Shown here piece after piece: positions 1 through 15,646 of a stretch of DNA of 15,646 bases; position 1 is the first letter of the stretch; each line of letters begins with the position of its first letter. Source of the stretch: Candidatus Hodarchaeota archaeon (GTDB lineage Archaea; Asgardarchaeota; Heimdallarchaeia; Hodarchaeales; Hodarchaeaceae); NCBI GenBank assembly GCA_016839785.1, contig JAEOTQ010000072.1, positions 1 through 15,646 on the forward strand, in the 5' to 3' direction. Under the pieces are notes generated by a model. It saw only the letters and a program-made list of their open reading frames with translations. It was not told the DNA's origin and made no database searches. The translations under genes and the position numbers were made by a program.

Positions 1-1
1 G

Positions 2-733: not shown

Positions 734-809
734 ATCTATCAGCGTTTATACTATAATGGATCCACCCTTAAATTGACTAGCTTTGGGAATGTTCAGAATT
801 CTCAACCTG

Positions 810-1110
810 TCAGACAAATTTAATGTTTTGTTCATTTTCTTCTTTCTTATCTTGTTTTTTCAACATTTTGTGTCTATGACGATACTGAATGAAAAGAAAA
901 ACAAGACAACCTAATACTGCCACGAAGACAAGGTGAGTTACTTCTTGAAAAAAAAGTACTAGATGAATATCCGAAGCGTCTAAAACAGGTCCTTCGTAAT
1001 AACCCGTTAACAATGAACCATACACCAACAAATATATTCCTAATGGTTGTTGTATATCCAGAACATATATAGTACCAGTGCCATCGCGAACATCAGTAGA
1101 TTTGCCTCGA
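810..1110 (-). pseudogene. Probable 5'-truncated gene: OB-fold-like segment, C-terminal TM helix and basic tail
   Basis: The frame of ORF 810..1031 stays open upstream with no ATG (stop at 1157-1155) and reads VRDGTGTIYVLDIQQPLGIYLLVYGSLLTGYYEGPVLDASDI, matching the DGTGxIxV...GxxLxVxG pattern of OB folds, then LVFVAVLGCLVFLFI and RHRHK. Confidence 0.5.
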
Positions 1111-1129
1111 AAGAAATGAGAGGAAATAA

Positions 1130-2419: not shown

Positions 2420-2430
2420 GAGGCAAACTC

Positions 2431-2592
2431 GTGAAAAAAGTATTACGACATACTCTGAATGTCTATTAGGTATAGGTCCCCCCAATGTCCGAACGTAAGG
2501 TCCCTCAACAAATCCATAAGCTGATGGTGAAAGAGGTGAAAGAAAAACAGGCGAATTTAAAATTGAACAAACTCATCCAAGTTACCCAATAA
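2431..2592 (+). pseudogene. Possible decayed ORF remnant downstream of the 429-aa gene
   Basis: AGGAGG at 2418-2423 overlaps the previous stop, then GTG at 2431. The frame reads VKKVLRHTLNVY*V*VPPMSERKVPQQIHKLMVKEVKEKQANLKLNKLIQVTQ*, with two early TAG stops. Confidence 0.3.
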
Positions 2593-2736
2593 CTGGTCCT
2601 AATCAGACAGGGGATCTTTATGTTGGAAACATCACCGCGTGGTTGCTGACTCAATCCCAAACCACCACTTCAACCACCCAAGCCACTCCCCTGACGAACA
2701 GTCTTGTTATCATCCTTACTTTGCTGGTAATGAAAA

Positions 2737-2868
2737 CTAGACGTAGATCAAAAGATTGCTAAATAAATAGTCCTTTGACATCACATACGAACGTTTCCCT
2801 TGCTTTCGTGCATTGTTATGAATCTCATAATGTTTTTGTACAAAATCTTCCGTATTTGGAATTTCCAT
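2737..2868 (-). CDS. Short ORF or gene remnant, 43 aa (MEIPNTEDFVQKHYEIHNNARKQGKRSYVMSKDYLFSNLLIYV)
   Basis: GAGGAG Shine-Dalgarno upstream of ATG 2868; follows another small minus-strand ORF. Confidence 0.3.
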   Translation of the reverse strand: MEIPNTEDFVQKHYEIHNNARKQGKRSYVMSKDYLFSNLLIYV

Positions 2869-2916
2869 TCTTTTTTCTCCTCAAATCATCTTTAAAATCA
2901 ATATTACTCCTTCTCC

Positions 2917-3088
2917 TTAAGTATTTTTCGGTTTTGACTTATCTACAGTAACGAACATCAATATAATGATAAGAGTAATTATTAATATTGAATTCAATAT
3001 TGTTGAAAACAATAAAACAATAACAATACTCAATAATAGACTAAGAACAAAGAAATGAATAATGAAATAGGTTAGTGATTTGAAACAT
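2917..3088 (-). pseudogene. Small two-TM membrane peptide whose ATG is one base out of frame
   Basis: Frame 3084..2917 reads FKSLTYFIIHFFVLSLLLSIVIVLLFSTILNSILIITLIIILMFVTVDKSKPKNT*. ATG at 3088-3086 is followed by one extra T (ATG T TTC). Confidence 0.4.
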
Positions 3089-3106
3089 TATTTAATATGA
3101 AGTAAA

Positions 3107-3562
3107 ATGAAAATTGAAATTCAGCGGGAAGTCATTGCGAACTCTGTGTTTGTAAAAAGACCAATGAACAGAACTCTAGAGGTCGATCTACTTACCCTGG
3201 TCGAAATTCAAGAGCTTAACTGCCCCCGACAACGAATCTTAGAAATTGAAGTTAGGTGTAGAGGCAAAACCCAGCGCTTTCCGTATGATGTCCTCTAAAA
3301 CCATCAAATCCCGCTTTCGAGTATAGTTACGCAAATTCGGGCCTCGAGGGGACGTGAGTTTCACCTAGTGCGTGAAAACCAAAAGAGTATTTATGTACAG
3401 ACGAATTATCCCTCGGTGACGAATTTGCTTACAGATTATCTGGTACAAAGGGACTGGGTTACTGCTGAGGATACGGCTACCCTCGAAATCGTAGGTTATC
3501 CCTCAAAGGAGGATAATCTCACCAGATATTTTGACTCTCTTAGATCAGACTCAATGAACTAA
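3107..3562 (+). pseudogene. Single gene split by an in-frame TAA (3296-3298); paralogue of the C-terminal domain of 9617..10357
   Basis: ORFs 3107..3298 and 3368..3562 share a frame. The gap translates NHQIPLSSIVTQIRASRGREFHL and aligns with DPRISLSTIADQIRTSTGRAFKT of the 246-aa protein. Confidence 0.85.
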
Positions 3563-3568
3563 TCTTGC

Positions 3569-3594
3569 GTGATCTACTCCTTAGTTGAGATCAC
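3569..3594. terminator. Hairpin between convergent genes
   Basis: GTGATCT (3569-3575) and AGATCAC (3588-3594) form an inverted repeat in the 40-bp gap between two stop codons. Confidence 0.35.
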
Positions 3595-3602
3595 AAGTGA
3601 AC

Positions 3603-4313
3603 TTATATCCTTCCTTTTCTTCGCCGCACAAAGATAATCGTTATACCTAAGACAATAGTCATTAATCTCACTGGGGTAGTGGTAGAGGTAGTTGTGGTTG
3701 TGGTATCGGTGGTTGACTCTGTCGTTGAACTTGACATCGAAGTACTAGTAGTCGACTTAGCCTGACTTTGTGTCTCTAACCAGGCAGTGATATTCTCTAT
3801 ATATATCTCGCCTGTTCCGCGATCTACATCATACCCAGGATTGGTCAGTTGAACTGAAAAGGAGCCACTACCAGACTTGGTGGAATCATTCAGAGAATAG
3901 TCTATCCACCACCGTCCCACAGCATCGGTAACTAAATGTTGAACATAAATTGCATTAAAGCTTGTCCCAGGAGCAAGTTCAAATGATTTTGGGCCTTCCC
4001 ATGTTGGATAAGTAGCATTGAACGTAAAATTTAGACTGGTCGTGGAGTTTGAATTAGTAGATATTGATACATTCCACGTAATACCTATATGGGAGGGATG
4101 GTCCCCATCTTCGAATAATCTCTGAGAGGAAGTAGTATTGGTTATCGTAAAGGTGTTCAATGTAATCTCCGAAATAGCAGAGCCTTTAAATGGTGCAAAT
4201 GAAGTGTAGGGGAGAAACAGGATCAATCCTGCAGAGAGGAGAAATAGAAAAACCTGACTTCTAGTAATGACATAATTGTGAACATCTACTCGGGAGATCA
4301 TTTTAATCACCAA
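3603..4313 (-). CDS. Secreted, C-terminally anchored cell-surface glycoprotein
   Basis: N-terminal hydrophobic segment (VFLFLLSAGLILFLPY), beta-rich domain with NxS/T sequons, Ser/Thr-rich linker, then TP + TM helix + RRRKGR, resembling archaeosortase-type sorting signals. The exact start codon is uncertain. Confidence 0.85.
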   Translation of the reverse strand: MVIKMISRVDVHNYVITRSQVFLFLLSAGLILFLPYTSFAPFKGSAISEITLNTFTITNTTSSQRLFEDGDHPSHIGITWNVSISTNSNSTTSLNFTFNATYPTWEGPKSFELAPGTSFNAIYVQHLVTDAVGRWWIDYSLNDSTKSGSGSFSVQLTNPGYDVDRGTGEIYIENITAWLETQSQAKSTTSTSMSSSTTESTTDTTTTTTSTTTPVRLMTIVLGITIIFVRRRKGRI

Positions 4314-4367
4314 AGATCGAATCTTTTTTTCTATAAAAGGTTATTGAAAAAAGAAGGGGGGGAAGTT

Positions 4368-5426
4368 TTATTCAGGAGGCCCATCAAAAAGGTCCGTGTA
4401 TGCAGCTATTCTAATTTCATTGTCTGGATGCAAAAACCAAGTGGGAATACCTTCCGTAAGCATTGACATGATATATCCAGTTCCATTACCTCCATAGGGG
4501 CTACCTGAGTAATTTCCACACCGATAGGTATCATTTATGTACCATGTATTGTTCCCCCACGGATCTCTACCTATTGGGTTATATTGAAGATGATCGTCAT
4601 TAGAATTGGGCATATAGACATGTCCAACTTCATGAAGTAACGCTCGTGAGTCCCAAGTTCCTCCTCCATCATAATTCATGAAGATATGATTTGCACCTCC
4701 ATATGGATTCTCATCACAATCAGACGTATTAATCAAACAAAGAACCATGTCAAATCCTTGGTTAAGCCCCGATGTCCCACTAGAAATTGTCCAAGTGTAG
4801 GGCAATCCTAATTGGGTTGCTGTTTCATTCTGTAGGAAATCTTCGGTATTATCATTCCACTCTGTGCTTATGAGAGAAGTGTTGTAGGAGGAGGAAAAAG
4901 GCATCACAACGAAATCAATGGAGAAGTGGTCAGAAAAGGTTGTGTTTTCCCAGGTACCGAACCAGTAACCATTTATCTCGGTTCCATTTAAGACAATGAA
5001 GTTGTCATTGGTCTCAAGATCAGAAAATAAGTTCTCAGCGAAGGAGGGAGTAATATTGTCACAAAGAATAGCAGCAACAAAGACAGTATGGGTCTCGTAA
5101 AATTGAACCCAAAAACCATTATTCGTAGCCCCAGACGTAGTATTCCAGGTAGCGGTTGAAATAAAGACATCGGTAATATTGTAATCTCCGATGTTCATGG
5201 CAAACCAACCATCCCAGGTATCGAACGCTGGATCGCAATAACCTTGGAAGATTTGAGGTAAATCAGCATAGCTATAGTTTTCTGTGATTTCACCAGGATC
5301 GAGAGTCTCGAGCGAAAAAGAATATTCTTTATTCACCCAGGTATGAAAATTAGAATAGTCAAACGCCTGCACTTTAACTTTAGCCTTTACTGTTTCTCCT
5401 TCAGCTGTTATTGTACCATTGGTTAT
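4368..5426 (-). CDS. Zincin/metzincin-like metalloprotease, probably 5'-truncated (first start codon GTG at 5372)
   Basis: ALLHEVGHVY (HExxH), a downstream His (DDH) and a Met-turn-like YIMS. Acidic, with many N-glycosylation sequons and no signal peptide. The frame continues upstream as ITNGTITAEGETVKAKVK to the neighbouring gene's stop. Confidence 0.8.
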   Translation of the reverse strand: MTNGTITAEGETVKAKVKVQAFDYSNFHTWVNKEYSFSLETLDPGEITENYSYADLPQIFQGYCDPAFDTWDGWFAMNIGDYNITDVFISTATWNTTSGATNNGFWVQFYETHTVFVAAILCDNITPSFAENLFSDLETNDNFIVLNGTEINGYWFGTWENTTFSDHFSIDFVVMPFSSSYNTSLISTEWNDNTEDFLQNETATQLGLPYTWTISSGTSGLNQGFDMVLCLINTSDCDENPYGGANHIFMNYDGGGTWDSRALLHEVGHVYMPNSNDDHLQYNPIGRDPWGNNTWYINDTYRCGNYSGSPYGGNGTGYIMSMLTEGIPTWFLHPDNEIRIAAYTDLFDGPPE

Positions 5427-6043
5427 AAAGTATCAATAGATGCTGGAAACTGATTTTGTTCCCAAAAGAAAGAAGCACAAAAGATCAGTAGAATAGATAT
5501 CATTCCCCCTAAGAAAAAGAGCCTTCTTCCGACAAGAAAAATGATGAACCAGAGAAGAAACTCACCTAGTAAATCAACTCGGAAGATTAAATACAGAAAT
5601 TCTTTTTTTACAATGATTTTCCCTTGAATTTCGTTAGGATTATGTTTTATGTAATCAAAAAATCCGATATTTCTGTATTGACTGAGAATGGTCCGTATTT
5701 GATGCCCCACTATTATCCCTATCATCAATTCACTACCTGCATTTATCAGAGAATTGTGTTCGTTCCATTTGCTTGTTATTAAGAACGATCCAAGACCAGT
5801 GAGTAGGATTAAGCTCAAAACCTGAAAGATCCAGGTTTTAGAGAACAAAATTCCATCTTCTTTGAGTAATTTAGCTTTAGCTGGATTTATATGAAAAAAA
5901 GGCTGTATATAATGAATATTATGTCCTTGCTTCCGTAATCGGTTACTTTTTGGAAGCAACCTCAAATCAAGTAAGGCTAATAGTAGAGTTACAGTAATCA
6001 CTAATATAGGGCTTGTTATCCAGTAATCTAGTATGTTTTTCAT
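5423..6043 (-). CDS. Multi-pass membrane protein, divergent DUF5658-like paralogue of 6075..6725
   Basis: About five hydrophobic segments. Collinear with its neighbour (WITSP/WINSP, HINP/ELNP, IQGKI/LEGAI, GRRLFFLG/GQPFFLG). Confidence 0.85.
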   Translation of the reverse strand: MKNILDYWITSPILVITVTLLLALLDLRLLPKSNRLRKQGHNIHYIQPFFHINPAKAKLLKEDGILFSKTWIFQVLSLILLTGLGSFLITSKWNEHNSLINAGSELMIGIIVGHQIRTILSQYRNIGFFDYIKHNPNEIQGKIIVKKEFLYLIFRVDLLGEFLLWFIIFLVGRRLFFLGGMISILLIFCASFFWEQNQFPASIDTL

Positions 6044-6074
6044 TTCTACCTGTCCAAGATATTACTTCATTTCC

Positions 6075-6725
6075 TCATTTGTTCTCAGATTTTTCCTCCC
6101 TCACCGAAGAACCATCCCTAGTCTCTTCCTCCCATTTGTACATTGATCTACTATTTACAATCGATTGTAAAAATAGACCAAGAAAGAAAGGCTGTCCAGT
6201 CAAAAAGAATGTGATGGCTCCCAACCAACCGAGAATAAAAATCTGTTGAGCACTTGTTTTATAGTTGAATGAGGGGGAGGTTGTGATTGCTCCCTCAAGT
6301 ATACCTGGTTTATTATTTACATACCAAAAGATTAATATGCTTTTAATATGGCTCATATTCACTAAAAAGTAGGTCCAAAAGAAAAAGCCTAGAATAATTT
6401 CGAATATAAACTCAACTAGAAATGTATCTTGATTCTGTTGATAAATCATTGAAAGACCAACAATGATTCCAATAGTAATAGTCCATCCTATCCAGATTTT
6501 TTTATCCAGAGGTTTTTCTTCATGAATGGTGTTTTGAACGCTAGGATTCAATTCATAAATCTCTGATTTGAAATGATTCCTATATCGTTTTTGGGCGAGT
6601 AAGAATCCTCTCCGAGTGAGGAAGTAATCAGATAAAATTAATATAATGAAAGTTCCCCCAGTAATGAACGGGCTATTTATCCAAAGCTCAAAAATTTCAG
6701 GGATTAGATTATAAGCAGGGGTCAT
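6075..6725 (-). CDS. Multi-pass membrane protein with a DUF5658-like D-x3-T...E-x-NP motif
   Basis: SDYFLT at the end of TM1, followed by YELNP; about five TM segments. The family call is from motif memory only. Confidence 0.85.
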   Translation of the reverse strand: MTPAYNLIPEIFELWINSPFITGGTFIILILSDYFLTRRGFLLAQKRYRNHFKSEIYELNPSVQNTIHEEKPLDKKIWIGWTITIGIIVGLSMIYQQNQDTFLVEFIFEIILGFFFWTYFLVNMSHIKSILIFWYVNNKPGILEGAITTSPSFNYKTSAQQIFILGWLGAITFFLTGQPFFLGLFLQSIVNSRSMYKWEEETRDGSSVREEKSENK

Positions 6726-6796
6726 CTGACTAATTCCAGTTACATTGAAAAATATTCAATATTATTTAATTACATTGATAGCCTTTTCAGTCTAGG

Positions 6797-7528
6797 TTAA
6801 AAGATTTCATCCTTCAGGTACAACGCCTTCGAAGTTAGTTGATTGTATTTTCTTCTTTTACTGTCTGGATTAAGGCATTTTATAAGGCCATTCTTTTTTA
6901 AGGCTGTTATTGCACGACACACAGAGACCGCAGATACATTCGCTTCTCTTGCAATTTCGTATGCATACTTGGGTCTTGATAATAATGCTTTATACACAAT
7001 CTTTCGTATTACTCCATCATTAACAAATGCAAGTAATTTGTAATAGTCTTTTTCAATTAAATTCTCTCTATTCGGTATTTTTAAGTATTTGAAAATATCC
7101 TCTACTAGTCTTATATTGGGTGTAATTTTTTGATTGATCGCTACAAGCTTTGTTTGATGCGTTAGTAAGATTATGTAATTATCATTTGGTAAATTTTCAC
7201 TTGCGTCTATGTCAAATCCAATATCACTATCGATAATCGCGATAATTGCCACCTCATTGCTTAAAGGGTCAAATCTTTCTTGAAGTATTGATGAAACATC
7301 ATGACTAGTTAATTTGATGCCAGTTCGTGTCTCAATCCCCACCACTATTCCTATTGTCTCAATATATGCATCAATGCAGAAATCTTTCCTTCGTTCACTT
7401 TGGAATAATTCAATTCCAGAGGAGAGAATTTTTTGGGAGTTTGCTATCATTCTTTCAAAACAACTCAATATCTTTTTTCGATATTCATTTTGATCATTTT
7501 TCTTATTTATGGATTTATTTTTGTTCAT
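6797..7528 (-). CDS. Mrr-like PD-(D/E)XK-fold domain fused to a C-terminal ArsR-like winged HTH
   Basis: N-terminus IDAYIE...GIETR...VSS...IIAIIDSDIGF...A follows the Mrr catalytic-domain layout. C-terminus RKIVYKALLSRPKYAYEIAREANVSAVSVCRAITALKKNGLIKCLNP...RKYNQLT is a typical archaeal wHTH. Confidence 0.85.
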   Translation of the reverse strand: MNKNKSINKKNDQNEYRKKILSCFERMIANSQKILSSGIELFQSERRKDFCIDAYIETIGIVVGIETRTGIKLTSHDVSSILQERFDPLSNEVAIIAIIDSDIGFDIDASENLPNDNYIILLTHQTKLVAINQKITPNIRLVEDIFKYLKIPNRENLIEKDYYKLLAFVNDGVIRKIVYKALLSRPKYAYEIAREANVSAVSVCRAITALKKNGLIKCLNPDSKRRKYNQLTSKALYLKDEIF

Positions 7529-7560
7529 TTTTTCTTATCCCCTTGGAATGGATTCTCCAA

Positions 7561-7568
7561 ATTTAAAT
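7561..7568 (-). promoter_or_regulatory. Candidate TATA box for the leftward regulator gene
   Basis: ATTTAAAT about 33 bp upstream of ATG 7528. Confidence 0.4.
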
Positions 7569-7795
7569 CTGACATGTTCGATATTGGAAAAAAACAGGAT
7601 CTTATGAGAAGAAAGGTTGGAAAAAGGCCTAAACTCCCATTTAGTTTAAATTCTTGTAGTACATATGAAAATAACATCAAACTCGTCTCCAAAGATTTAT
7701 TGTGTATTAAATTTTATATAACTCACGAATTTCAGATCTCTTTTAACATGAATCTGAATTATATCCCCAATCATATCTAGATATTTAAATTCCGA

Positions 7796-7880
7796 CTAGC
7801 AAGATGCTAGCAACAATAGGACAAGATACTAGCAACAGTATCACATCATTCTAGACTGAGTCTAGTACAAGATTAGCACC
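7796..7880. repeat. Helically phased CTAG array with two 15-bp palindromes (candidate operator array)
   Basis: CTAG starts at 7796, 7807, 7829, 7851 and 7862, and TTAG at 7873, all multiples of 11 bp apart. Palindromes are CTAGCA-AGA-TGCTAG (7796-7810) and CTAGACT-G-AGTCTAG (7851-7865). The direct repeat CAAGATRCTAGCAACA occurs at 7800 and 7822. Confidence 0.75.
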
Positions 7881-7937
7881 CGATACAATAATTCTAAGGG
7901 AGTTCTTCCCCGCACCTCTTGTCAGTGAATTTGGGTG

Positions 7938-7945
7938 TATAAATA
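7938..7945 (+). promoter_or_regulatory. Candidate TATA box for the rightward regulator gene
   Basis: TATAAATA about 30 bp upstream of ATG 7975. Confidence 0.5.
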
Positions 7946-8027
7946 GAAAATAGGTATAGGAAAAGAGAAGAACAATGATACGTCTAATCTTTCAGGGCTA
8001 TCTGACCTGGAGGAAGGGAGTTCTCCT

Positions 8028-8817
8028 ATGAGAAAACTACCTCTCGAACCAGCATGTTGAAGAAACTAAACAACAAATACTGGAGTACTATAAAACACTG
8101 CTGGAAAAGGACAAAACTCCAATTCTTTCATCAGGAATTGGTGAGAAATATCATGGGATAGATTCCCAAAGTTACCCTTTAGATATCTTTATTGAAATCC
8201 CTGGTCATCTGATAGTTATTGAACTGTACACAGAAGAAATTCTGGACAACCTGGAAATTGATAGAATTCTGGAACAGCGATTTCAGCTCATTAGTCAACT
8301 CCGTCCAATCATTGCAATTATCGTGAGTACAAAAGGATTCCACAATATTAAGAAGGAAAAATTATCGACTACTGGCTATCCCCTCGTTTTAACACAAAAC
8401 TGTCAATTAATTATGTTGAATATTCATGCACAGTGGAATAAGCTTATTAATTGTTGTCTGTTTCCAAATCATGTCAAGGGGGTACCAAATCTTGATACAG
8501 AGTTACTAGCAAGTTCCGAAATTCCAAAAGTTCTTTCGAGTGTAGGCCAAATACGGGACATAATCTTAGATGGCAAGTTACGTACTAAGATCTATCTTTC
8601 ACTTTTACAACGACCGAAATATGGTGGAGAAATTGCCCAAGAACTAGAAAAAAATGTTTCGTCAGTATATCGTGTATTGAAAGAGCTTGGCCGACTGGGA
8701 ATAGTAAGCAGTCGTTGTAGTGCAGATTCATATAAGATTTATTACGAAATCTCATCCCTTGCGCACCATGCTAAGGATTCTATTTTGAGTTCTTTGGATA
8801 AAAACGGAACCATCTAA
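8028..8817 (+). pseudogene. Paralogue of 6797..7528 (Mrr-like fold + wHTH) with a disrupted start; the true coding frame opens at 8032, not 8323
   Basis: Frame 8032-8322 reads ENYLSNQHVEETKQQILEYY...ILSSGI...LDIFIEIPGHLIVIELY...ILEQRF...IIAIIVSTKGF and aligns with the leftward gene. ATG 8028, after GGAGGAAGGGAG, is one base out of frame, and an in-frame TGA lies at 8029-8031. Confidence 0.8.
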
Positions 8818-9060
8818 GTCCCCCAGTATAGACAAAATGAGCCCCTAGTTTTTTATTTGAATGATTTCTCATCCAAGAAGTTGAGAGATAGAAAGTGGGG
8901 GTGTAAACGGACGGTGTCTTCACAGCCGTAAGGCTAGACTAGACATCCTGAATTTGCTCACAGGAATATATTTTGGATCTAAAATTTTGGACGGAAAATG
9001 CCCAAAAACATAACCAGAGGATCTTAACAAGAAGGATCCACTTGTACTTTTTGATGTGGG

Positions 9061-9507
9061 ATGTGTCTCAGGAAGAGCAAAAATAACGTCTGGAAAGCAG
9101 TTAAACCCCACAGAACAGTTTTGATCCTAGAAAAGCAACGCCTCCTTCATTCGCTATATACTCACGCTCTAGAGGAACATAATTGGCGAGTCGTCAGCTG
9201 TGTGACCTCTCCACAGGAACTCCTCCAGAAATATCTGACGGTTCCGAAGAAACCTGATCTTCTCCTTCTCGATTATGAGGAGAAGCATTATCCTGAATTA
9301 CTTCCAGTCTTGCAAAGCATTTTGCTGGAATCCCCGTTTCAATATCTTTTATTTGTTAGTAGTGAGGAACGACTTGTGAGGGATAACACCTTCTTGCCTC
9401 CCCTCCTACGAGAAGTTCCTGTCGTTTTAAAATTCACTCATTCCATTCAGGACCTAGTCCATGATCTGGATTACCTTCCTGACTATGGATATCCCCTGAT
9501 GCACTGA
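9061..9507 (+). CDS. Stand-alone atypical response-regulator receiver (CheY-like) domain
   Basis: VLILEKQ (beta1), KPDLLLLDY (phosphoacceptor Asp), LLFVSS (Ser/Thr) and VVLK (Lys). The acidic pair is reduced to EK and the Pro after Lys is missing. Confidence 0.8.
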   Translation: MCLRKSKNNVWKAVKPHRTVLILEKQRLLHSLYTHALEEHNWRVVSCVTSPQELLQKYLTVPKKPDLLLLDYEEKHYPELLPVLQSILLESPFQYLLFVSSEERLVRDNTFLPPLLREVPVVLKFTHSIQDLVHDLDYLPDYGYPLMH

Positions 9508-9616
9508 GGCTGCCATAGTGAAATGATTCAACCTAGTAATTCGAATTTCTCGACAAAATTTTGAATATATAAATGAAAGTAAGGATGAGGGGTAGAGGAA
9601 ATCAACATTTCAAGAG

Positions 9617-10357
9617 GTGAAAATAATGACAAATGATATCCCTGAGAATATCAAGGCAATCTGGGAGGAAGGGCAACTCGCGAAGGCCTGTGGGGACAAA
9701 GAGGCAGCAATGAAGCATTTTCTCTGGTATTTTGATCTTCTTACAATTTTCTCTCAGTCTTTGAATTTGCCTTATTCCGAAGCATTACTTCAACAGCGCT
9801 TAGACGAAGTCCGAGCTGAAATTCGGACCTTTCTCTTAGATCCTACCTATTTACAAACCACTACGCTTCCTCATGAAGGAATTACCGAGATTAAACTTGC
9901 TATCGGTATGGTGGCACAGGAGACCGCGGATACCAGACAAGATTTAATCGAAACTGCAGTATTTGTCAAACATCCTACGAAAAAAGCACTAAGTGTTGAA
10001 CAGTTGACCTTAGTTGAACTCAAGTCTAAAACCGAGTTAAAGAATCGGGTCTTGAAAGTGGAAGTGACATGTGAAGGTAGAACACAACTATTCGCTTATG
10101 ATACATTGCCTGACCCTAGAATTTCATTGTCAACGATTGCCGATCAAATTCGGACCTCTACAGGTAGAGCTTTCAAGACATTTACGACATACGAAGGAAC
10201 TTTTATTGTCCAGACAGGTTATCCTTCCATTCGAAATTTACTTACCTGTTATTTAGAGCAGGGTGGATGGCTAACGGCTGATGAAGCCTCTCAGATTGAA
10301 GTAGTGGGCTATCCGTCTACCAATCATGCGTTTCCCGATGTGTTTGGAGTGACCTAG
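9617..10357 (+). CDS. Hypothetical protein: N-terminal MIT/TPR-like helical bundle plus an unrecognised ~145-aa C-terminal domain
   Basis: GAGG upstream. AIWEEGQLAKACGDKEAAMKHFLWYFDLL has a TPR/MIT-like helix-pair pattern. The C-terminal domain is duplicated at 3107..3562. Confidence 0.8.
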   Translation: MKIMTNDIPENIKAIWEEGQLAKACGDKEAAMKHFLWYFDLLTIFSQSLNLPYSEALLQQRLDEVRAEIRTFLLDPTYLQTTTLPHEGITEIKLAIGMVAQETADTRQDLIETAVFVKHPTKKALSVEQLTLVELKSKTELKNRVLKVEVTCEGRTQLFAYDTLPDPRISLSTIADQIRTSTGRAFKTFTTYEGTFIVQTGYPSIRNLLTCYLEQGGWLTADEASQIEVVGYPSTNHAFPDVFGVT

Positions 10358-10734
10358 AAATCATACTCGTAGGAAATCTTATAAGCGATATTATCTAGAT
10401 TTTAGCGAGGTTTTTGTGGGTGAAGAAATCCTTTTCTAAAATTCCATAAAGACCTCCTCCCTCCCCCCTCCTCTTATCATTTTTTATGAAATATAAGTCA
10501 TGGACAGCATGAATGTATAAATTATTAGTCATAATGCGGTCGTCAATCATTATCAGTGTAGTGGATTCTAGGACAAAAAAGGGTCACTCAGCAGGGTACA
10601 TTATGTCAGAGTATCAGGTTTCTTTGAAGTTTTAGGAAAGTATTCAGATGGTTTGAAGGTGAAAAAATCAAAGATGCGATCTGGGATAGTCTTCTTCCTG
10701 CTTTTGTGAAAGATATGCTGAGGAAGGCGGTATT

Positions 10735-10750
10735 TGAAAAAAAAGAAGAT
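10735..10750 (-). terminator. Oligo-T terminator after the small peptide gene
   Basis: The minus strand reads a CTTC + T-run + CAA tract within about 20 nt after the TAA at 10759-10757. Confidence 0.45.
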
Positions 10751-10756
10751 GGAGGG

Positions 10757-10888
10757 TTAAAGAGGGGGTAAGGGGCCTCCTAATACATCAGCCGATCCTT
10801 GATTGATGACAAGGAGCATCACTAACACCCAAAGGGTCACCCAAAAGACTTTCCTCCAGTTATCCCATATTGATTTCTTCAATGCCAT
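10757..10888 (-). CDS. Unannotated 43-aa secreted prepropeptide MALKKSIWDNWRKVFWVTLWVLVMLLVINQGSA/DVLGGPLPPL
   Basis: ATG 10888 to TAA 10757. Basic n-region, 15-residue h-region, polar c-region ending G-S-A (small residues at -3/-1) and a 10-aa tail. Followed by an oligo-T tract. Confidence 0.65.
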   Translation of the reverse strand: MALKKSIWDNWRKVFWVTLWVLVMLLVINQGSADVLGGPLPPL

Positions 10889-10950
10889 TTTCTTTTCACT
10901 TCTTTCAACTTAGAATTCTATAAGCGGATTCGCTCAGAAAGGATTCTCAT

Positions 10951-10978
10951 TTTCACTTATATATTCGAAAGAGTGAAA
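10951..10978. promoter_or_regulatory. Inverted repeat enclosing a TATA-like element in the divergent promoter region
   Basis: TTTCACT (10951-10957), TATATATTCGAAAG, AGTGAAA (10972-10978). A further TTTTCACTT half-site lies at 10893-10901. Confidence 0.45.
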
Positions 10979-11048
10979 CTGACCTCTAACTAGTCGAGCC
11001 ATTTTATTGAGATTTTAAGGAAAACATCAGGTGAGCTTATGATCAGAT

Positions 11049-12542
11049 ATGAATCACTCAGTCCCACATCAGAAACTAGAGGAATCCTCTGTTTCTCTCC
11101 CCTTGGATCCGTTTGTACGGGATATTTGTACCCTTTGGACTCAAATTCGTCATCAGGTAGGTCAAAGGCGGATTCGAAAAATTTCCAAAACTGTCGAGAT
11201 TACACAAGGGCTTATGGACAAATTAACTCTTCCTTTTTATGAAAAATATCAGAATAGTCCTTTGATTGAATATTCTCCCGCTTGGATAAAATATTTCGCC
11301 TCTATTTCAATATTATGGCGAGGTGGACGAATCCTGTTCCCTTTACGATTTGTTACTTATGAACTCGCATATTTCCAAGATCAGTTTCTGGAGACTTACC
11401 TGGAACAAGTGCAGCAGCAGAAGATTTCTGGCACGGTTGAGACTTTCTTTAAGATTGTATTTCCTAAATTACTTCATCTCGCCTTACCGCTTTCCACTTC
11501 AGATGTTCTTCTTTTAAAAAACCTTCAATCTGTCTATAATGCTCAAAATAGGTACTCTGGCCCCTCCGCGCGAAATTTTGTCCACAAAATCCCCAATTTG
11601 CCTGCAGAGACGATTCGTAATAAGTTCGAATACTTCCGTTATTTTCAGATAGCGATTCCTGCTCATTTTCTTGATATGGGGAAGTTAGGGTTTGAGACTT
11701 TTCTGATCTCTCATTCTGTTTCCTTAGTGAATCAGCTTTCACCTTATTGTTTACTCTCTGTGAATCTGAATGGTTCTTATTATAGTCTGATTCAGCTTCC
11801 TTACACTAACACTCATTTACTGGAGGTATTGCTTGACTTTCTAGCTAGGGATGAGAGTTCATCTCCAGAATATCTCCCTATGACTTGGAGAACCCATTCA
11901 TGGAATTTATCCTCTCTTCAGATGGGAAAAAACAACTGGGAACTTCCATATGCCTTTTTCCATGGTGATCCAACTGTCAGTCCCGAGGGGCCGCCTTTCA
12001 CCATGAACCTATCCTTGGATCCTCAGTTTGAGCCTTTTCGGCCTCTTACCGAGGCGGATCTGAAACTCTTATCTTTTTTAACGACCGTTGGGAAATTCCT
12101 CCGAATCAACGATTTAGCCAAGCAATTAGAGCTTCACCGTAATACTGTGGTTAAGCTTTTGACAGATTATCAATCGTCTCACCTGCTTCATCAAGTGGTT
12201 CAGTATTTTAATCTCGGATTGGATTTGCCTGTGTACCTTTACATGTCGATTCCTCAACAGTCGATCAAAATTCCTTTCTTAGAGCAGTGTAGGACCTTAC
12301 CTCGGATAGACTTATTTTCTACTCAGACTCCCCAAACATCAATCTTCTTTGGCAGAATTGATCTCCCGTCGTTATGGTGCAGAGAGTTCGTTTCTCATAT
12401 GCATATGTTCCGAGAAGCTTATCCTGAGATAATTCTTCATTATTCCTTTGAGCCGGCTTCTCTTATCCGTTGGAATCTTTCCCTTAGTGAAACTTATGAT
12501 GGTTTGGGGGGAACCCCTCATAACTCCATGAAATACGAATGA
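11049..12542 (+). CDS. Large transcriptional regulator with two tandem Lrp/AsnC-like wHTH + ligand-domain modules
   Basis: Module 1 is LSTSDVLLLKNL...ETIRNKFEYF...LDMGKLGFETFLI. Module 2 is LTEADLKLLSFL...INDLAKQLELHRNTVVKLL...YFNLGLDLPVYLYM. Both match the Lrp pattern LxxxDxxIL...HTH...dxxkLG. Confidence 0.75.
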   Translation: MNHSVPHQKLEESSVSLPLDPFVRDICTLWTQIRHQVGQRRIRKISKTVEITQGLMDKLTLPFYEKYQNSPLIEYSPAWIKYFASISILWRGGRILFPLRFVTYELAYFQDQFLETYLEQVQQQKISGTVETFFKIVFPKLLHLALPLSTSDVLLLKNLQSVYNAQNRYSGPSARNFVHKIPNLPAETIRNKFEYFRYFQIAIPAHFLDMGKLGFETFLISHSVSLVNQLSPYCLLSVNLNGSYYSLIQLPYTNTHLLEVLLDFLARDESSSPEYLPMTWRTHSWNLSSLQMGKNNWELPYAFFHGDPTVSPEGPPFTMNLSLDPQFEPFRPLTEADLKLLSFLTTVGKFLRINDLAKQLELHRNTVVKLLTDYQSSHLLHQVVQYFNLGLDLPVYLYMSIPQQSIKIPFLEQCRTLPRIDLFSTQTPQTSIFFGRIDLPSLWCREFVSHMHMFREAYPEIILHYSFEPASLIRWNLSLSETYDGLGGTPHNSMKYE

Positions 12543-12959
12543 AATCTGTTTGATCTCAGTCCGTTTTTTTCTCCAAATTTTCGTTAAATTGTGCCCGAAA
12601 AGTCACTCCTTGGAGCTTAAAGATGGCTTAGGGAATAGATGAGTGGTTGTAAAGACTGTCCCTACTCAGATAGGGGTTCATCTGTAAGCTTAGGGATGGC
12701 TTCTTTTCGACCCCATTCACGGATTGGTTAATACTCTTACAAACAGTTGTCAAACGCTTCTTGATTCTCGTCGTCGGGGGTATCTGATGAGTACGGGTGA
12801 GGAGTCACTTCTCAGTCTCCTTTTTTTAATAAAACATTTAATGTACAATAGCACATCCAAAAAACCTTCAAAAGAAGTTTTTTCATCCTTTTTTTGAGAA
12901 TATAGGCACTACCACCAGTTAAATCGACCAAATTACGAGTTCTGTATGAAGGGTTTTAG

Positions 12960-12990
12960 TTTTTAGGAAAAAAAAGAAAAAAGGGGTGAA
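12960..12990 (-). terminator. Archaeal oligo-T terminator
   Basis: Two long T-runs on the minus strand immediately after the stop at 12992. Confidence 0.55.
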
Positions 12991-12991
12991 A

Positions 12992-13378
12992 TTACAGAAA
13001 ATAATCAATAACGAGGACAATTCCACCAAGTAATACAAGTAGGCCTCCAAGACCTGCACCGATAATACCTACAACAATATAGATAATTCCCCATAATAAG
13101 AGTTCGTTTTTAGGTTTTCCAGCAAGTTGTTTGTAGCCGAAGACGGCAACAATACCAAGAACAATCATAATCGCGCCAGCAATTAATCGACTATCTGCTC
13201 CACCTATAGCTTCACCGACAAAGTTCATACCTAGATCAACGCCAAATTGATCAAGAGCAAAAATTGCATCATCCAATACATTATTAACGACCATTACAAT
13301 GCCAAGGACGATCATAAGAATACCGCCAATGACACCTAATATTCTTCCTATAAATTTTAAATCAGCCATTTTAATCAC
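12992..13378 (-). CDS. Small Gly-rich membrane protein, about 4 TM; likely start ATG 13369 (MADLK)
   Basis: ILGVIGGILMIVLGIV...GIIYIVVGIIGAGLGGLLVLLGGIVLVI, with repeated GxxxG-type helices. Confidence 0.85.
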   Translation of the reverse strand: MIKMADLKFIGRILGVIGGILMIVLGIVMVVNNVLDDAIFALDQFGVDLGMNFVGEAIGGADSRLIAGAIMIVLGIVAVFGYKQLAGKPKNELLLWGIIYIVVGIIGAGLGGLLVLLGGIVLVIDYFL

Positions 13379-13644
13379 AGTTTATTTCTTAATTGTGTAA
13401 AATCCGCGGATTATTTCGGATTTTGAGGACGGATGTAGTTGGGGTTTTTGAGAAATTATATACTTTACGAGTAGGAATTTCGTAATTAACAACATACTAT
13501 GAAATTTATTTCTTCTATCTTTACTTCAACGATCAAAAGTCTTGATCATAAATGAGCAAACGACAATCTACCAACGATTTAGGTTAAAATCATGCCAAAT
13601 TCATTGACGAAAGTCATAAATATACTCTCGGTGTCATATTATTT

Positions 13645-14094
13645 CAAAAGAATTACAAACCAAATTAATTGAGTAGTGGTGAGGTATAACGAGTTGGTTT
13701 AGCTGTAGCTCTTGTTAATGATCCCAAAATTTTACTGACAGACGAATCAAGTGGTGAACTCGATTCAGAAACTACTTCACAGATCATTGATTATTTTAAA
13801 GAACAATAGAGAGATCTAGGAAAAACCATTATTGTTCTAACACATGACCCAGAATTTGCATCAATGAGTAATAAAACATTGAAAATCCAAAATGGTAAGC
13901 TAGCTGGATTATATGAGAATAAGAGTAAAATTAATTATTCCAAAAATGAAGAACTGACATTTGTAGACAAATTTGGAACCTTAACTATTCCAGAAAAATT
14001 CCGAAAAATTGTTAATTTCCATGAGTATATACAATTTAGACTTGAGAAAAGAAAATTGATCGTAGATCCAGTTAACTCCGATGAAGAACCCTGA
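13645..14094 (+). pseudogene. Remnant of a LolD/MacB-type ABC ATPase (C-terminal half) with a C-terminal AbrB-like domain
   Basis: In frame with ORF 13864: KNYKPN*LSSGEV*RVGLAVALVNDPKILLTDESSGELDSETTSQIIDYFKEQ*RDLGKTIIVLTHDPEFA (signature, Walker B, D-loop, H-loop), then VDKFGTLTIPEKFR (AbrB-like). Stops at 13666, 13687 and 13807; no Walker A found. Confidence 0.92.
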
Positions 14095-14404
14095 TTCAAG
14101 CAAAGTTGATATCCTTAAATAGAATTTCACTTTATAAAAAGGTGTTGAAATGTCGTAATAGCACGTATCCTGATTTTCCTCTAGGTATGGGCTTCATTTT
14201 TTCGTATTTTTCACTGAAAAAATCATTCTACTAACAGAAAATCACGAGTCAAGGTATTAAACACAAGTTTTATCATTTCTTACCATATGAACGCAGTTCA
14301 CATGTTCACATGCACTTTCACTTTTGTGCATAGAAGTTCCACTCGCTTGACCACTCATTCCTATGGAAGTCCCATTTCTTTTACTAAAAGGTAGATAGAA
14401 AGGA

Positions 14405-15646
14405 CTATTCGCTTTCTCTAATACCTGTGGCTTTTCTAGCAGTTTTTTTCTGTTTATACGCATAAAAAAGCTCAGATAATTCTTGTATCTGACTGAGTAA
14501 CTTAATTATGTCTATAGTTACAAATTGATAATCATTTATAACCATTTCTCCATTTGAGATAACATAGCGAAGTTCATTTCCGTTTGCGGCCCAAATGAGA
14601 TTCTCAATAACATTATCACTCCTAGTGGGAGTGAGATTGGGAACAGAAAGATCTATTATGGCAATATCGGCAGTTTTTCCAGGAGTCAATGAACCCGTAT
14701 TATAGTCTAATATTTGTGAAGGGATGATTGTAATTCTTTCTAACACATCTTGTGCAGTCATTAACGTTGCATTTTTATGAAGAGCTTTCTGATATTGGGC
14801 GGCTAAACGAGCGGCATTGATAATATTTTGGTTGTCTGCACTCCCTGATCCATCAGTAGATATAGCAAATGGTATGTTTCGTCTTTTAAATTCTTGAATT
14901 GGTGGCATTCCTGAACCTAGGATCGTATTTGCCAAAGGATTATGGACTACTGCGGTATGTGTGTTTTCAAGAATTTCCAAATCTTTTTCAGAATTATGAA
15001 CTTGATGACCAACAAATGTCTGTTTATCTAGAAATCCGATAGAATTGGCATATTCAATTGGTGTCATCCCATATTCTTTTGTAAACCATTGAGTTGTAGC
15101 ATGTTCCTCACTGGAATGGATATGTATCATTGATTGATGATCATCGGCCCAATTTTTTAATTGTTTAAGTAGCTCTGGTCCATTAGAGAAAAGTTGATCA
15201 GGACCAGGGATAATTCGTACATTGGGTTCATCCTTATATTTCTCATAGAGATCATTCATTCGTTTGATTGCCAGTTCTACTGGTTTATCAAGAATTCGTG
15301 GATCATAATGTCTATCTTGTGATCCCACTGCAATGGTGATCTTGGTTTTTGCATCTCGATTCGCCTCCACCAATTCTGGTACATGATACTTGTTGAAATT
15401 ACAGTGATGAACTACTGCAGTTGTAATCCCGTGCTGTAGATCATCAATACGTGCTTTTAGGTAAGTGAGATAATAGGGGGATCGTCCAAATCTTTTTGTT
15501 AGTATCTCTTCTTCCTCGTGAAGAAAACCTGTGAAGTGATTGACTGCTTCGTCGAGCCAGGTTGTTAATGGTACATCCTTCGCAATTCCTATTAGAGGTG
15601 ACTCATGATCATGTCCATGAGCTTTGACAAATCCTGGTAATGCGAC
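14405..15646 (-). CDS. Metal-dependent amidohydrolase, MtaD/AtzA/TrzA (nucleoside/nucleobase deaminase) group; 5' end outside the window
   Basis: The frame is open from 15646: LPGFVKAHGHDHE (HxH), PLTTWLD, GITT, IHIHSSE, HQVH, VVHNPLAN, STDGSGS and GSLTPGKTADI. The ORF-track start at 15373 is internal. Confidence 0.93.
   Translation of the reverse strand, partial: VALPGFVKAHGHDHESPLIGIAKDVPLTTWLDEAVNHFTGFLHEEEEILTKRFGRSPYYLTYLKARIDDLQHGITTAVVHHCNFNKYHVPELVEANRDAKTKITIAVGSQDRHYDPRILDKPVELAIKRMNDLYEKYKDEPNVRIIPGPDQLFSNGPELLKQLKNWADDHQSMIHIHSSEEHATTQWFTKEYGMTPIEYANSIGFLDKQTFVGHQVHNSEKDLEILENTHTAVVHNPLANTILGSGMPPIQEFKRRNIPFAISTDGSGSADNQNIINAARLAAQYQKALHKNATLMTAQDVLERITIIPSQILDYNTGSLTPGKTADIAIIDLSVPNLTPTRSDNVIENLIWAANGNELRYVISNGEMVINDYQFVTIDIIKLLSQIQELSELFYAYKQKKTARKATGIRESE

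Follow-up and report, generated by a model that had tools for sequence, protein, structure and literature searches.

Does the 43-residue open reading frame (ORF) that lies divergent to the gene of a 497-residue protein in a Hodarchaeales genome encode a peptide signal, and is this signal read by the neighbouring protein? Systems in which a cytoplasmic receptor reads a peptide signal have been described in Bacillota and their phages. A full-text literature search yielded no description of an archaeal counterpart, nor of the present gene pair. The window analysed here is a stretch of 15,646 nucleotides from Candidatus Hodarchaeota archaeon (assembly GCA_016839785.1, contig JAEOTQ010000072.1, positions 1 to 15,646 of the forward strand). 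A sequence-only reading of this DNA had proposed that the small ORF is the precursor of a secreted decapeptide and that the larger protein, described as a double Lrp regulator, senses it.

Layout of the locus

The following features were assigned, with positions counted from the first nucleotide of the window.

10737-10744, minus strand: run of eight T, candidate archaeal terminator, 12 nt past the stop of the small ORF
10757-10888, minus strand: small ORF, candidate signalling-peptide precursor, ATG start, 43 aa plus stop
10760-10789, minus strand: Gly/Pro-rich tail, codons 34-43, candidate mature decapeptide, fast-evolving and located at the co-fold interface
10790-10888, minus strand: signal-peptide-like leader, codons 1-33, with basic N-region, hydrophobic core and Gly-Ser-Ala small-x-small site, cleavage inferred
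10889-11048, no strand: divergent spacer between the small ORF and the 497-aa ORF, 160 bp
10916-10924, minus strand: TATA-like element, about 30 nt upstream of the small-ORF ATG, promoter use putative, read from sequence
10951-10978, no strand: inverted repeat of 7 + 14 + 7 nt around a TATA-like core (10956-10971) that is conserved
11049-12542, plus strand: 497-aa ORF, candidate peptide receptor and transcription factor, with an N-terminal helical domain and two tandem Lrp/AsnC-like modules
11049-11486, plus strand: N-terminal domain, residues 1-146, helices and a beta-hairpin, family-specific, with residues 76-96, 138 and 142 contributing to the predicted peptide cleft
11487-11948, plus strand: first Lrp/AsnC-like module, about residues 147-300, with a winged helix and then a beta-alpha-beta-beta-alpha-beta domain
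12021-12503, plus strand: second Lrp/AsnC-like module, about residues 325-485, with Lrp/AsnC fold and profile matches
12564-12570, plus strand: run of seven T, candidate terminator, 21 nt past the regulator stop, read from sequence

The small ORF, its oligo-T tract, the 160-bp spacer and the 497-aa ORF were thus all found where the earlier reading had placed them. The 43-aa product consists of a short basic N-terminal end, about 15 hydrophobic residues, the Gly-Ser-Ala site and a 10-residue tail rich in Gly and Pro. Oligo-T tracts are established terminators of archaeal transcription, and a run of at least five T was present at the same distance from the small ORF in both orthologues (loci L011 and L027). 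Shine-Dalgarno-like 5-mers preceded only 18 of 40 small ORFs, which is a weak signal. In three DNA runs, the contig pieces recovered for the locus were all short and identical, and variants were absent.

The inverted repeat, with arms TTTCACT (10951-10957) and AGTGAAA (10972-10978) separated by 14 nt, is present as had been reported, but carries no evidential weight. When the 160-bp spacer was shuffled, 603 of 2000 sequences contained a perfect inverted repeat of at least 7 bp with a spacer of at most 30. Some such repeat was found in 9 of 25 homologous spacers, a different one in each; the orthologous spacer of L011 lacks it and that of L027 retains a shortened version only. As an operator the repeat was rejected on these grounds, being at chance level in the shuffles and having arms that are not conserved among orthologues. 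The TATA-like core between the arms is conserved in L011 and L027 alike. Another motif, a TCTAGA-centred palindrome preceded by CCGRA, recurs in most spacers of the main clade and is absent from the spacers of the window's clade and of the poly-Pro clade, so it cannot be used for the present locus. For its own clade it is merely circumstantial evidence of sequence-specific DNA binding, a property that itself remains an inference.

Small ORFs as a gene family

Fifty divergent small ORFs were collected. Within 43-68 aa they repeat one plan: the N-region is basic, a hydrophobic core comes next, and a small-x-small site leads into a tail that is rich in Gly and Pro and varies between members. In public data, a cluster search restricted to lengths of 18-112 aa returned 36 protein clusters of 43-68 aa, every named one of which is called hypothetical. 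All 50 divergent ORFs end after a short tail, and the possibility that the ORF is the truncated N-terminus of a longer secreted protein, which would have refuted the original proposal, was rejected on this basis together with the uniformly short database clusters (18-112 aa searched).

Signal-peptide features of Sec type I (positive N-region, hydrophobic core, small residues at -3/-1) were met according to our own rule. Applied to the 50 ORFs, this rule places a small-x-small site behind the hydrophobic core of 48, among them the window's ORF with its Gly-Ser-Ala. N-regions carry up to eight Lys/Arg, with at least five in 44/50. The signal-peptide plan with a cleavage site that had been read from the single ORF is therefore borne out across the family, while cleavage itself is inferred.

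Selection was estimated from six orthologues of a sister clade, in which pN/pS was 0.11 for the N-region, 0.13 for the hydrophobic and c-region, and 0.77 for the tail. By these ratios the leader is under purifying selection and the tail is fast-evolving. A chance ORF was ruled out by conservation and by this selection pattern; judged from sequence, the small ORFs form a genuine gene family.

Pairing with the regulator

Recurrence of peptide genes beside homologues of the regulator had been named as a check on the proposal, and the check came out in its favour. Within the genus (21 congeneric genomes), a divergent small ORF lies upstream of 50 of the 63 assessable regulator homologues. The genome of the window contains 11 regulator paralogues, seven of them with a divergent small ORF, and in two sister genera all three assessable homologues (3/3) have one. 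The peptide gene is missing at 13/63 regulators, several of which are second copies in tandem. Pairs occur in many copies per genome and in clusters.

A profile of the small ORFs, run against the 33,837 small ORFs of the window's genome, returned exactly the seven paired ones (next best E 0.006). Since these seven had gone into building the profile, what the search adds is the absence of orphan peptide genes among those 33,837 ORFs.

Flanking genes showed no shared synteny among three orthologous loci; only the pair is therefore conserved. Neither a protease or transporter nor a modifying enzyme, radical-SAM, YcaO or haem-pathway gene was found conserved beside it in the window, on the paralogue contigs or in the orthologue flanks. 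Elsewhere in the genome, 14 matches to SBP_bac_5, an oligopeptide-type binding protein, were detected, none linked to a pair. Given these matches peptide uptake is plausible, re-import itself being inferred. A SIR2_2 protein is encoded on one paralogue contig.

Architecture of the 497-residue protein

Single-sequence searches of the window's protein against Pfam, NCBIfam and the PDB gave nothing above cut-off; NCBIfam contained a weak Lrs14/Sta1 match at residues 333-406. A family of 42 representatives was collected from 1.84 billion sequences. Among 21 family members searched against Pfam at E ≤0.05, weak HTH_24 signals appeared in 7/21 and HTH_AsnC-type signals in 5/21, AsnC_trans_reg was matched by none of them nor by the window's protein, and the sole TPR-like signal came from 1/21 members (E 0.047). 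PADLOC gave no match for either protein or for three neighbours, and PHROGs none for the 497-aa protein or nine neighbours.

With the family profile, PDB matches were obtained for both modules: PH0140 (E 7.1e-8) and NMB0573 (E 1.6e-5) for module 2, and PH0061 (E 2.2e-4) for module 1 (positions 150-235). The PH0140 match aligns profile positions 323-452 with chain residues 25-155. Profile matches start at the first residues of Lrp/AsnC regulators and so take in an N-terminal winged helix-turn-helix of the AsnC/HTH_24 type. No siroheme decarboxylase was among the 42 PDB profile matches.

The protein was modelled with AlphaFold2 (pLDDT 87.6) and folds were compared using Foldseek and VIA-align. 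The best structural match was NirDL, a fused double Lrp fold (Z 13.0 over 279 residues; Foldseek E 1.4e-6), aligned with model residues 150-490 at 12-14% identity. Lrp/AsnC regulators followed with Z 6.4-7.5 over model residues 329-484, and PqqD was among the weak matches (Z 5.7). In the model, both modules have the beta-alpha-beta-beta-alpha-beta order of the effector (RAM) domain. From the alignment, a pattern of the type Thr-Val/Ile-x-x-Arg, as found in Lrp recognition helices, is kept in both modules of most members.

The N-terminal domain, modelled alone, reached a pLDDT of 92.9. Against 48,161 PDB chains it gave no match at Z 5 (best Z 4.6). So far as the model allows a statement, the domain has no recognisable fold, and the absence of a match at Z ≥5 is no proof of a new one.

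Model and profile together indicate that the 497-aa protein is a tandem Lrp/AsnC fold with an extra N-terminal domain; its binding to DNA is inferred. The double Lrp assignment is hence supported by fold and by profile. Three observations count against reading the protein as a receptor and regulator, namely that the best structural match is an enzyme, that the window's own protein falls below the Pfam cut-off and that HTH_24 signals, weak ones, were obtained for no more than 7 of the 21 family members.

Predicted binding of the tail

The precursor and the regulator were co-folded, resulting in a score of 0.78 (three runs: 0.78, 0.81 and 0.37), with 0.00 for the best of three controls. In calibration, 58 of 80 solved complexes and 2 of 110 mismatched pairs came up to the mark applied; these counts hold only roughly with our own alignments. 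At least 77% of contacts are common to the runs, and the partner has a pLDDT of 60 or more.

On the peptide side, the interface is formed by residues 31-43 only, without any residue of the N-region. Contacts on the regulator comprise residues 76-96, 138-205, 346-353, 384-387 and 470-475, mostly outside the two effector-domain cores. Helix three of the first winged helix is among them, as is the strand that comes next, and contacts extend along strand 202-205. The peptide site predicted by the model is a cleft to which the N-terminal domain also contributes, not the classical Lrp effector pocket, and binding is a prediction only. The idea that the Lrp-like protein senses the peptide gains from the predicted docking of the tail and its contrast with the controls, but the predicted site does not appear to be the pocket that an Lrp ligand would classically occupy.

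Tail classes coincide with regulator clades. The partial correlation between tail distance and contact-column distance, controlled for the rest of the protein, was 0.27, a value reached by 8 of 300 random column sets. Two limits apply: the contact set is model-derived, and the control columns were chosen without matching for variability. On these terms the predicted contact columns co-vary modestly with the tails; the co-variation looked for is present, but weak.

Proposed mechanism

Pairing, conservation, selection pattern and fold were shown computationally, as was a co-fold that passes and has the tail at its interface. These results are best explained by a self-contained two-gene cassette of Hodarchaeales in which a secreted tail peptide is read by the divergent tandem-Lrp receptor, an explanation that we regard as about evenly poised between right and wrong. 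In short, the basic N-region and hydrophobic core would target the precursor to the membrane, and a cut at or near the small-x-small site would release a Gly/Pro-rich peptide of 9-16 residues, here the last 10. The cytoplasmic 497-aa protein would bind this tail in the cleft between its own N-terminal domain and the hinges of the two Lrp modules. Binding may alter the action of the protein on DNA, and the simplest target would be the divergent promoter region common to both genes. The peptide would serve as an autocrine or cell-to-cell signal and would need re-uptake; several pairs per genome, each with its own tail type, could act as separate channels. Export, the cleavage site, re-import, DNA binding, the biological output and signalling at the level of the population are all inferred; nothing directly shows that the small gene is expressed or its product exported, cut or taken up, and no RNA run covering the locus was found.

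Alternative explanations

The small protein might instead stay uncleaved, span the membrane once with the N-terminus in the cell and the tail out of it, and act as a membrane partner of the regulator, for instance tethering or releasing it through the conserved basic N-region, without any diffusible signal. The uncharged span is mostly 20-24 residues long, which suffices for a membrane anchor, and the small protein may therefore remain uncut. With about 19 residues, acidic ones among them besides the basic, its N-region is longer and better conserved than usual, hinting at a role beyond targeting; a pN/pS of 0.11 is more conservation than targeting alone needs, and strict gene pairing suits any physical partnership. 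This arrangement would put the tail outside the cell, away from the cytoplasmic protein, whereas the co-fold interface consists of tail-end residues 31-43 with the N-region absent. The small-x-small site is conserved past the core in 48/50, and it is the tail, not the N-region, that evolves fast. We consider such a membrane partner unlikely. Another suggestion is that the small hydrophobic protein is a membrane-active, bacteriocin-like toxin with the large protein as its dedicated regulator or immunity factor. Shortness, hydrophobicity, a variable end, many clustered copies per genome and the SIR2_2 protein on one paralogue contig would suit it. The tails are short and Gly/Pro-rich, unlike pore-formers, PADLOC was blank for both proteins and PHROGs for the larger one, and a predicted specific contact between tail and receptor, with tails matched to clades, fits recognition better than killing, which leaves a toxin very improbable.

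The remaining question is whether the 497-aa protein acts on DNA at all, or is a peptide-binding chaperone, recognition element or enzyme that works on the precursor inside the cell, comparable to the winged-helix elements of RiPP systems or to NirDL. That its best structural match (Z 13.0; E 1.4e-6) is the enzyme NirDL and that PqqD appears among the weak ones (Z 5.7) can be read in this way, as can the presence of the first winged helix in the predicted contacts, since this module may bind peptide rather than DNA. The family profile, however, picks out genuine Lrp/AsnC regulators and not a single decarboxylase, the pattern of Lrp recognition helices is kept in both modules of most members, and genes for modifying enzymes, radical-SAM, YcaO or the haem pathway are not conserved in the vicinity. 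A fast tail behind a conserved leader is also the opposite of what a leader-binding recognition element leads one to expect. A role of this kind appears decidedly improbable, and the cassette with a secreted tail peptide and a tandem-Lrp receptor remains our preferred reading.

Comparison with known systems

RRNPP(A) systems of Bacillota and phages (Rap-Phr, PlcR-PapR, NprR-NprX, Rgg-SHP, AimR-AimP and Paenibacillus Alo) resemble the present pair in that a short propeptide gene adjoins the gene of a cytoplasmic receptor. TPR repeats are a criterion for their receptors. This criterion is not met here, a tandem Lrp/AsnC protein with a non-TPR N-terminal domain taking that place. An adjacent short ORF with signal-like leader and variable C-terminal tail is present, export and maturation being inferred. 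The host, moreover, is an Asgard archaeon and not a member of the Bacillota, the genes are divergent, and export, processing and import are unproven. Both share a conserved leader, a variable mature part and many paralogous pairs per genome; some Paenibacillus species are reported to have more than 25 peptide-receptor pairs (PMC7425212). The logic of secretion, maturation and re-import in RRNPP(A) systems is described in two further sources (PMC7564271, PMC11343458).

Each module resembles the Lrp/AsnC (feast/famine) regulators PH0140 (9w4v), NMB0573 (2p5v) and LrpC (2cfx), with a winged helix followed by the beta-alpha-beta-beta-alpha-beta domain. Here, by contrast, a single chain contains two modules, preceded by an additional domain of 146 residues, and the Pfam models are not reached. 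Classical Lrp/AsnC proteins hold an amino acid between effector domains, whereas the ligand predicted here is a 10-residue peptide at the cleft of N-terminal domain and hinges. Among the siroheme decarboxylases NirDL and AhbA-AhbB (4czc, 4ch7, 4czd) is the one solved protein whose single chain has two Lrp/AsnC-like modules in the arrangement of the model. NirDL differs in being an enzyme, in its low identity, in its absence from the PDB profile matches and in lacking the N-terminal domain; neither a sequence relationship nor a haem-pathway context was met, with no haem or haem d1 genes near the locus. RiPP recognition elements of the PqqD type are winged helices that bind peptide along a beta-strand, and the contacts predicted along strand 202-205 are alike. 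They differ in that the C-terminal tail, not an N-terminal leader, is predicted to be bound here, and in the weakness of the PqqD match. Linked modifying enzymes and leader-directed binding, as in RiPP precursors with recognition elements, were not met.

Implications

A broader claim, which we put forward tentatively and rate as possible but still somewhat doubtful, is that Hodarchaeales, an Asgard lineage next to eukaryotes, run several orthogonal peptide-pheromone channels per cell, seven in the genome of the window. Each would consist of a secreted Gly/Pro-rich peptide of 9-16 residues and its own cytoplasmic tandem-Lrp receptor. This would be the first peptide-based cell-cell communication in archaea, with parts unrelated to the bacterial ones, and the first Lrp-fold protein with a peptide ligand. 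The pair also illustrates that an ORF of fewer than 60 aa, a class mostly hypothetical or uncalled in annotation, can make up the essential half of a conserved module. If our preferred reading is right, Asgard archaea evolved the same logic independently, using an Lrp-fold receptor, and peptides would join amino acids in the known ligand range of Lrp/AsnC proteins. How the closest archaeal relatives of eukaryotes behave socially would then be open to experiment.

Organization of the locus

The 43-residue ORF, the 497-aa ORF divergent from it and their shared spacer, all claimed in the sequence-only reading, were confirmed at the following positions, listed with other features of the window.

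2-733: M48 peptidase
3603-7528, minus strand: five consecutive ORFs of 206-334 aa
12 nt past the small-ORF stop, minus strand: T8 run, read in the sequence
10757..10888, minus strand: small ORF of 43 residues, with a short basic N-terminal end, then a hydrophobic core and a Gly-Ser-Ala site, and a Gly/Pro-rich tail of 10 residues
About 30 nt ahead of the small-ORF ATG, minus strand: TATA-like element, read in the sequence
10889-11048: 160-bp spacer between the divergent small ORF and regulator
10951-10957 and 10972-10978: arms of an inverted repeat, flanking a TATA-like core
11049..12542, plus strand: regulator ORF of 497 aa, divergent from the small ORF
14405-15646: amidohydrolase

The five ORFs at 3603-7528 gave no Pfam match at the curated cut-off and none at all in PHROGs; one contained a weak TrmB-type helix-turn-helix.

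The inverted repeat, noted in the divergent region by the sequence-only reading, was dropped as evidence and carries no weight. A repeat as good was obtained in 603 of 2000 shuffled versions of the spacer, and one of the two orthologous spacers lacked it while the other held a shorter form, the core between the arms being kept in both. Of 25 listed homologous spacers, 9 had some unrelated repeat of 7 bp.

Most main-clade spacers carried a conserved TCTAGA-centred palindrome, with CCGRA ahead, between the two promoters. In the spacer comparison this palindrome was absent from the window's clade, whose spacers instead have another block in common, around the TATA-like core, so that, judged by sequence, operators seem to be clade-specific; none is established for the window locus. 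The strict CCGRA/TCTAGA palindrome occurred just 6 times in the source genome (G000), including 3 times in pair spacers. The three matches outside pair spacers (G000:C16:3419, C84:1396 and C155:4657) may be regulon members or may have arisen by chance. One of them lies upstream of the gene for a 275-aa protein whose N-end is signal-like, another upstream of an ORF of 245 aa whose family is unknown.

Recurrence of the pair

The source genome (4.04 Mb, 248 contigs, 84.5% complete; window on contig C23) encoded the regulator family at 11 places, and at 7 of these a divergent small ORF of the same plan was found (43-55 aa, spacer of about 90-210 bp). Two of the other four were tandem second copies, one was without such an ORF, and one had an in-frame stop and ran into the contig end. 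A small-ORF profile, of which all seven ORFs were members, was searched against the 33,837 small ORFs of this genome and returned exactly the seven (E ≤1.1e-11; next E 0.006). Because these were already in the profile, the informative result of the search is that no orphan copies were found in the source genome.

The regulator family profile matched in 29 of 41 related genomes, among them 21/21 of the same genus and 2/2 from a second family within the order. Elsewhere in the class, the matches were weak, partial and confined to the second winged-helix module (families f3, 1/6 genomes; f4, 4/8; f5, 0/3). Flanks of the full-length matches in the genus were scanned for divergent small ORFs. A profile-matching ORF with an ATG start was found beside 40 regulators. 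Another 9 had an ORF with the plan of the family whose start was TTG, GTG or weaker-scoring, so that, with the copy on contig C47 counted, 50 of the 63 regulators that could be assessed had a partner. Excluded were seven duplicate rows, produced by overlapping loci, and two truncated genes whose upstream sequence was shorter than 300 bp; 5 loci of other genera were counted apart. Several of the partnerless regulators were second copies in tandem clusters. All 3 assessable loci of two sister genera had a small divergent ORF whose tail was Pro-rich.

Public protein sets yielded 36 clusters of the small-protein family (43-68 aa), none with a Pfam domain; the clusters that bore a name were 'hypothetical', with labels such as Hodarchaeota, Hodarchaeales and Heimdallarchaeota. 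On a contig of a Candidatus Hodarchaeota archaeon there was a protein 56% identical to the regulator. The placement among Asgard archaea in the sequence-only reading is therefore correct. The three orthologous loci had no neighbouring genes in common, so the pair alone is the conserved unit. Peptide genes thus recur beside regulator homologues, a check named in the sequence-only reading, and we have hardly any doubt that the two genes form a real, conserved module.

Other observations near the pairs

Behind the peptide gene of the poly-Pro clade, on the same strand, there is a third conserved ORF of roughly 100-125 aa, at G000:C47:5198-5509, plus strand (L077:5198-5509), and just downstream of the small ORF at loci L052, L053, L058, L061, L063 and L064. 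The C47 copy had no Pfam match. The window's clade is without this ORF and has an oligo-T run behind its small ORF instead. A tandem second-copy paralogue, P0014 (G000:C126:954-2651, minus strand; 565 aa), diverges from the family past about residue 426 and has no partner peptide gene; its C-terminus combines a Pro-Gly-Phe motif, a hydrophobic stretch and basic residues, which resembles an archaeal PGF-CTERM sorting signal. At locus L065 (G001:C1:457500-461400), a small ORF of the family type (2907-3050, plus strand) is not divergent and upstream but follows the regulator on the same strand, 268 bp downstream; it may belong to a neighbour beyond the fetched stretch. Contig C234 holds four regulator paralogues and, at its edge, a LuxC-type acyl-CoA reductase gene (E 4e-50) with a weakly LuxE-like ORF (G000:C234:71-3020, plus strand). 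In the paralogue at G000:C234:12544-13979 (minus strand), which reaches the contig end, an in-frame TAA separates an N-terminal piece from the rest; a pseudogene and an assembly error are both possible. A SIR2_2-domain protein (G000:C97:228-1277, minus strand) shares its contig with two regulator-peptide pairs arranged back to back.

The small protein

The N-region of the main clades is well conserved, spans about 19 residues and usually contains 5-8 Lys/Arg besides 2-3 acidic positions. For the uncharged span, lengths of 20-24 residues predominate. Using a simple rule of our own, a small-x-small site was found after the core in 48 of 50 small proteins, taking the form Gly-x-Ala then Asp-Pro in many members, including the window's and poly-Pro clades. 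Tails of 9-16 residues fall into classes: Gly-Pro with a terminal acidic residue, Gly-Gly...Pro-Pro, poly-Pro, and the window's own type, which two orthologues also have.

Across the 15 pairs formed by six sister-clade orthologues (non-independent pairs of short sequences), pN/pS was 0.11 in the N-region, 0.13 in the core and c-region and 0.77 in the tail. From the low values in the leader and the high one in the tail, the small ORF is inferred to be translated and under constraint, its end changing rapidly. The grouping of the regulator tree matched tail class exactly, and the seven pairs of the source genome were spread over different clades; the pairs are therefore of old origin, and each has diversified as a unit.

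The regulator

Searched alone, the regulator gave no Pfam match at cut-off, just weak winged-helix signals in NCBIfam (residues 333-406) and nothing significant among PDB sequences. Its family is small, with 42 representatives at E ≤0.001 among 1.84 billion (30 at ≤1e-10). An AlphaFold2 model (21-row alignment; pLDDT 87.6, pTM 0.86) predicted a helical N-domain and, behind it, two successive modules, each a winged helix with a beta-alpha-beta-beta-alpha-beta domain. The top Foldseek match was the fused double-Lrp enzyme NirDL (E 1.4e-6), followed by Lrp/AsnC regulators. In VIA-align, 279 residues aligned with NirDL within model residues 150-490, at Z 13.0 and rmsd 5.0; for single Lrp/AsnC regulators, Z was 6.4-7.5 and the alignment covered residues 329-484. 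The family profile matched PH0140 (7.1e-8), 7fby (8.1e-8), NMB0573 (1.6e-5) and 3i4p (7.9e-5) across the second module, including the effector domain, and PH0061 (2.2e-4) in the first; siroheme decarboxylase was absent among its 42 matches to PDB sequences. Scanned singly, family members gave HTH_24 in 7/21 and HTH_AsnC-type in 5/21. The earlier designation as a double-Lrp regulator is therefore correct by both fold and profile. The N-domain (first 146 residues), modelled alone (pLDDT 92.9), had no match at Z ≥5 among 48,161 PDB representatives (best Z 4.6).

Predicted binding of the tail

Co-folding of tail and regulator, as had been proposed, was carried out with the 497-aa regulator (21-row alignment) and the full 43-aa precursor (23-row alignment). 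The score was 0.78 (runs 0.78, 0.81 and 0.37), against 0.00 for the best of 3 controls, with contact agreement between runs of at least 77% and partner pLDDT of at least 60. The mark is reached by 58/80 solved complexes and 2/110 mismatched pairs; these counts hold just roughly, since our own alignments were used. To our knowledge there is no solved structure of a comparable complex, which makes it unlikely that the model passed by memorisation. The predicted interface involves precursor residues 31-43 (proposed cleavage site and tail), the leader making no contact. On the regulator it comprises residues 76-96, 138 and 142 of the N-domain, 159-205 in the first winged helix and the strand behind it, 346-353 in the loop of the second winged helix, and strands 384-387 and 470-475. 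Binding is thus supported by the model without being demonstrated.

Co-variation, likewise suggested earlier, was weakly positive. Across 50 pairs, tail distance correlated with distance at 45 contact columns, the rest of the protein being controlled (partial r 0.27); 8/300 random column sets of equal size reached this value, and label permutation gave p 0.0005. Sequences are related, the contact set is model-derived and control columns were unmatched for variability; the support is modest. On balance, binding of the tail by the regulator is considered probable.

Proposed signalling and alternatives

In the proposed mechanism, the precursor would be exported by the Sec route and cut at or near the small-x-small site, both steps being inferred. 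A peptide of 9-16 residues would then build up outside the cell, be taken up again and dock in the cleft of its cognate tandem-Lrp protein, a step backed by the model alone; the action of the regulator on DNA would presumably change. The source genome gave 14 matches to oligopeptide-type binding proteins, none linked to the pair.

The hydrophobic span of the small protein could instead be a membrane anchor, and the conserved, partly acidic N-region suggests an additional role. Against signalling, moreover, NirDL, the nearest solved double-Lrp protein, has an enzymatic function, one of the co-fold runs scored low (0.37), 13 of the 63 regulators lack a peptide partner, and no protease or transporter was found travelling with the pair in the window, the paralogue contigs or the orthologous loci. 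With no expression or peptide data for the locus, that the peptide is a secreted signal remains a tentative proposal, for which we would give at best even chances. As a whole, and within the reach of computational evidence, the interpretation as a peptide-signalling module is supported.

Comparison with known systems

By fold and profile, the regulator does belong to the Lrp/AsnC superfamily, of which it is an unusual member, being a tandem fusion with a new N-domain and a peptide predicted at a non-classical site. No account of such a system was found in a full-text literature search. Eukaryotes have been proposed as sister to Hodarchaeales (PMC12395588). The pairs resemble RRNPP cassettes as described in PMC7564271, PMC11343458 and PMC7425212: a putative propeptide gene lies next to that of a presumably cytoplasmic receptor, a variable end, taken to be the mature peptide, follows a conserved leader, and one genome carries many paralogous pairs. 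The Hodarchaeales module would work like an RRNPP cassette, yet is not of that family, because its receptor has no TPR domain and its host is an archaeon.
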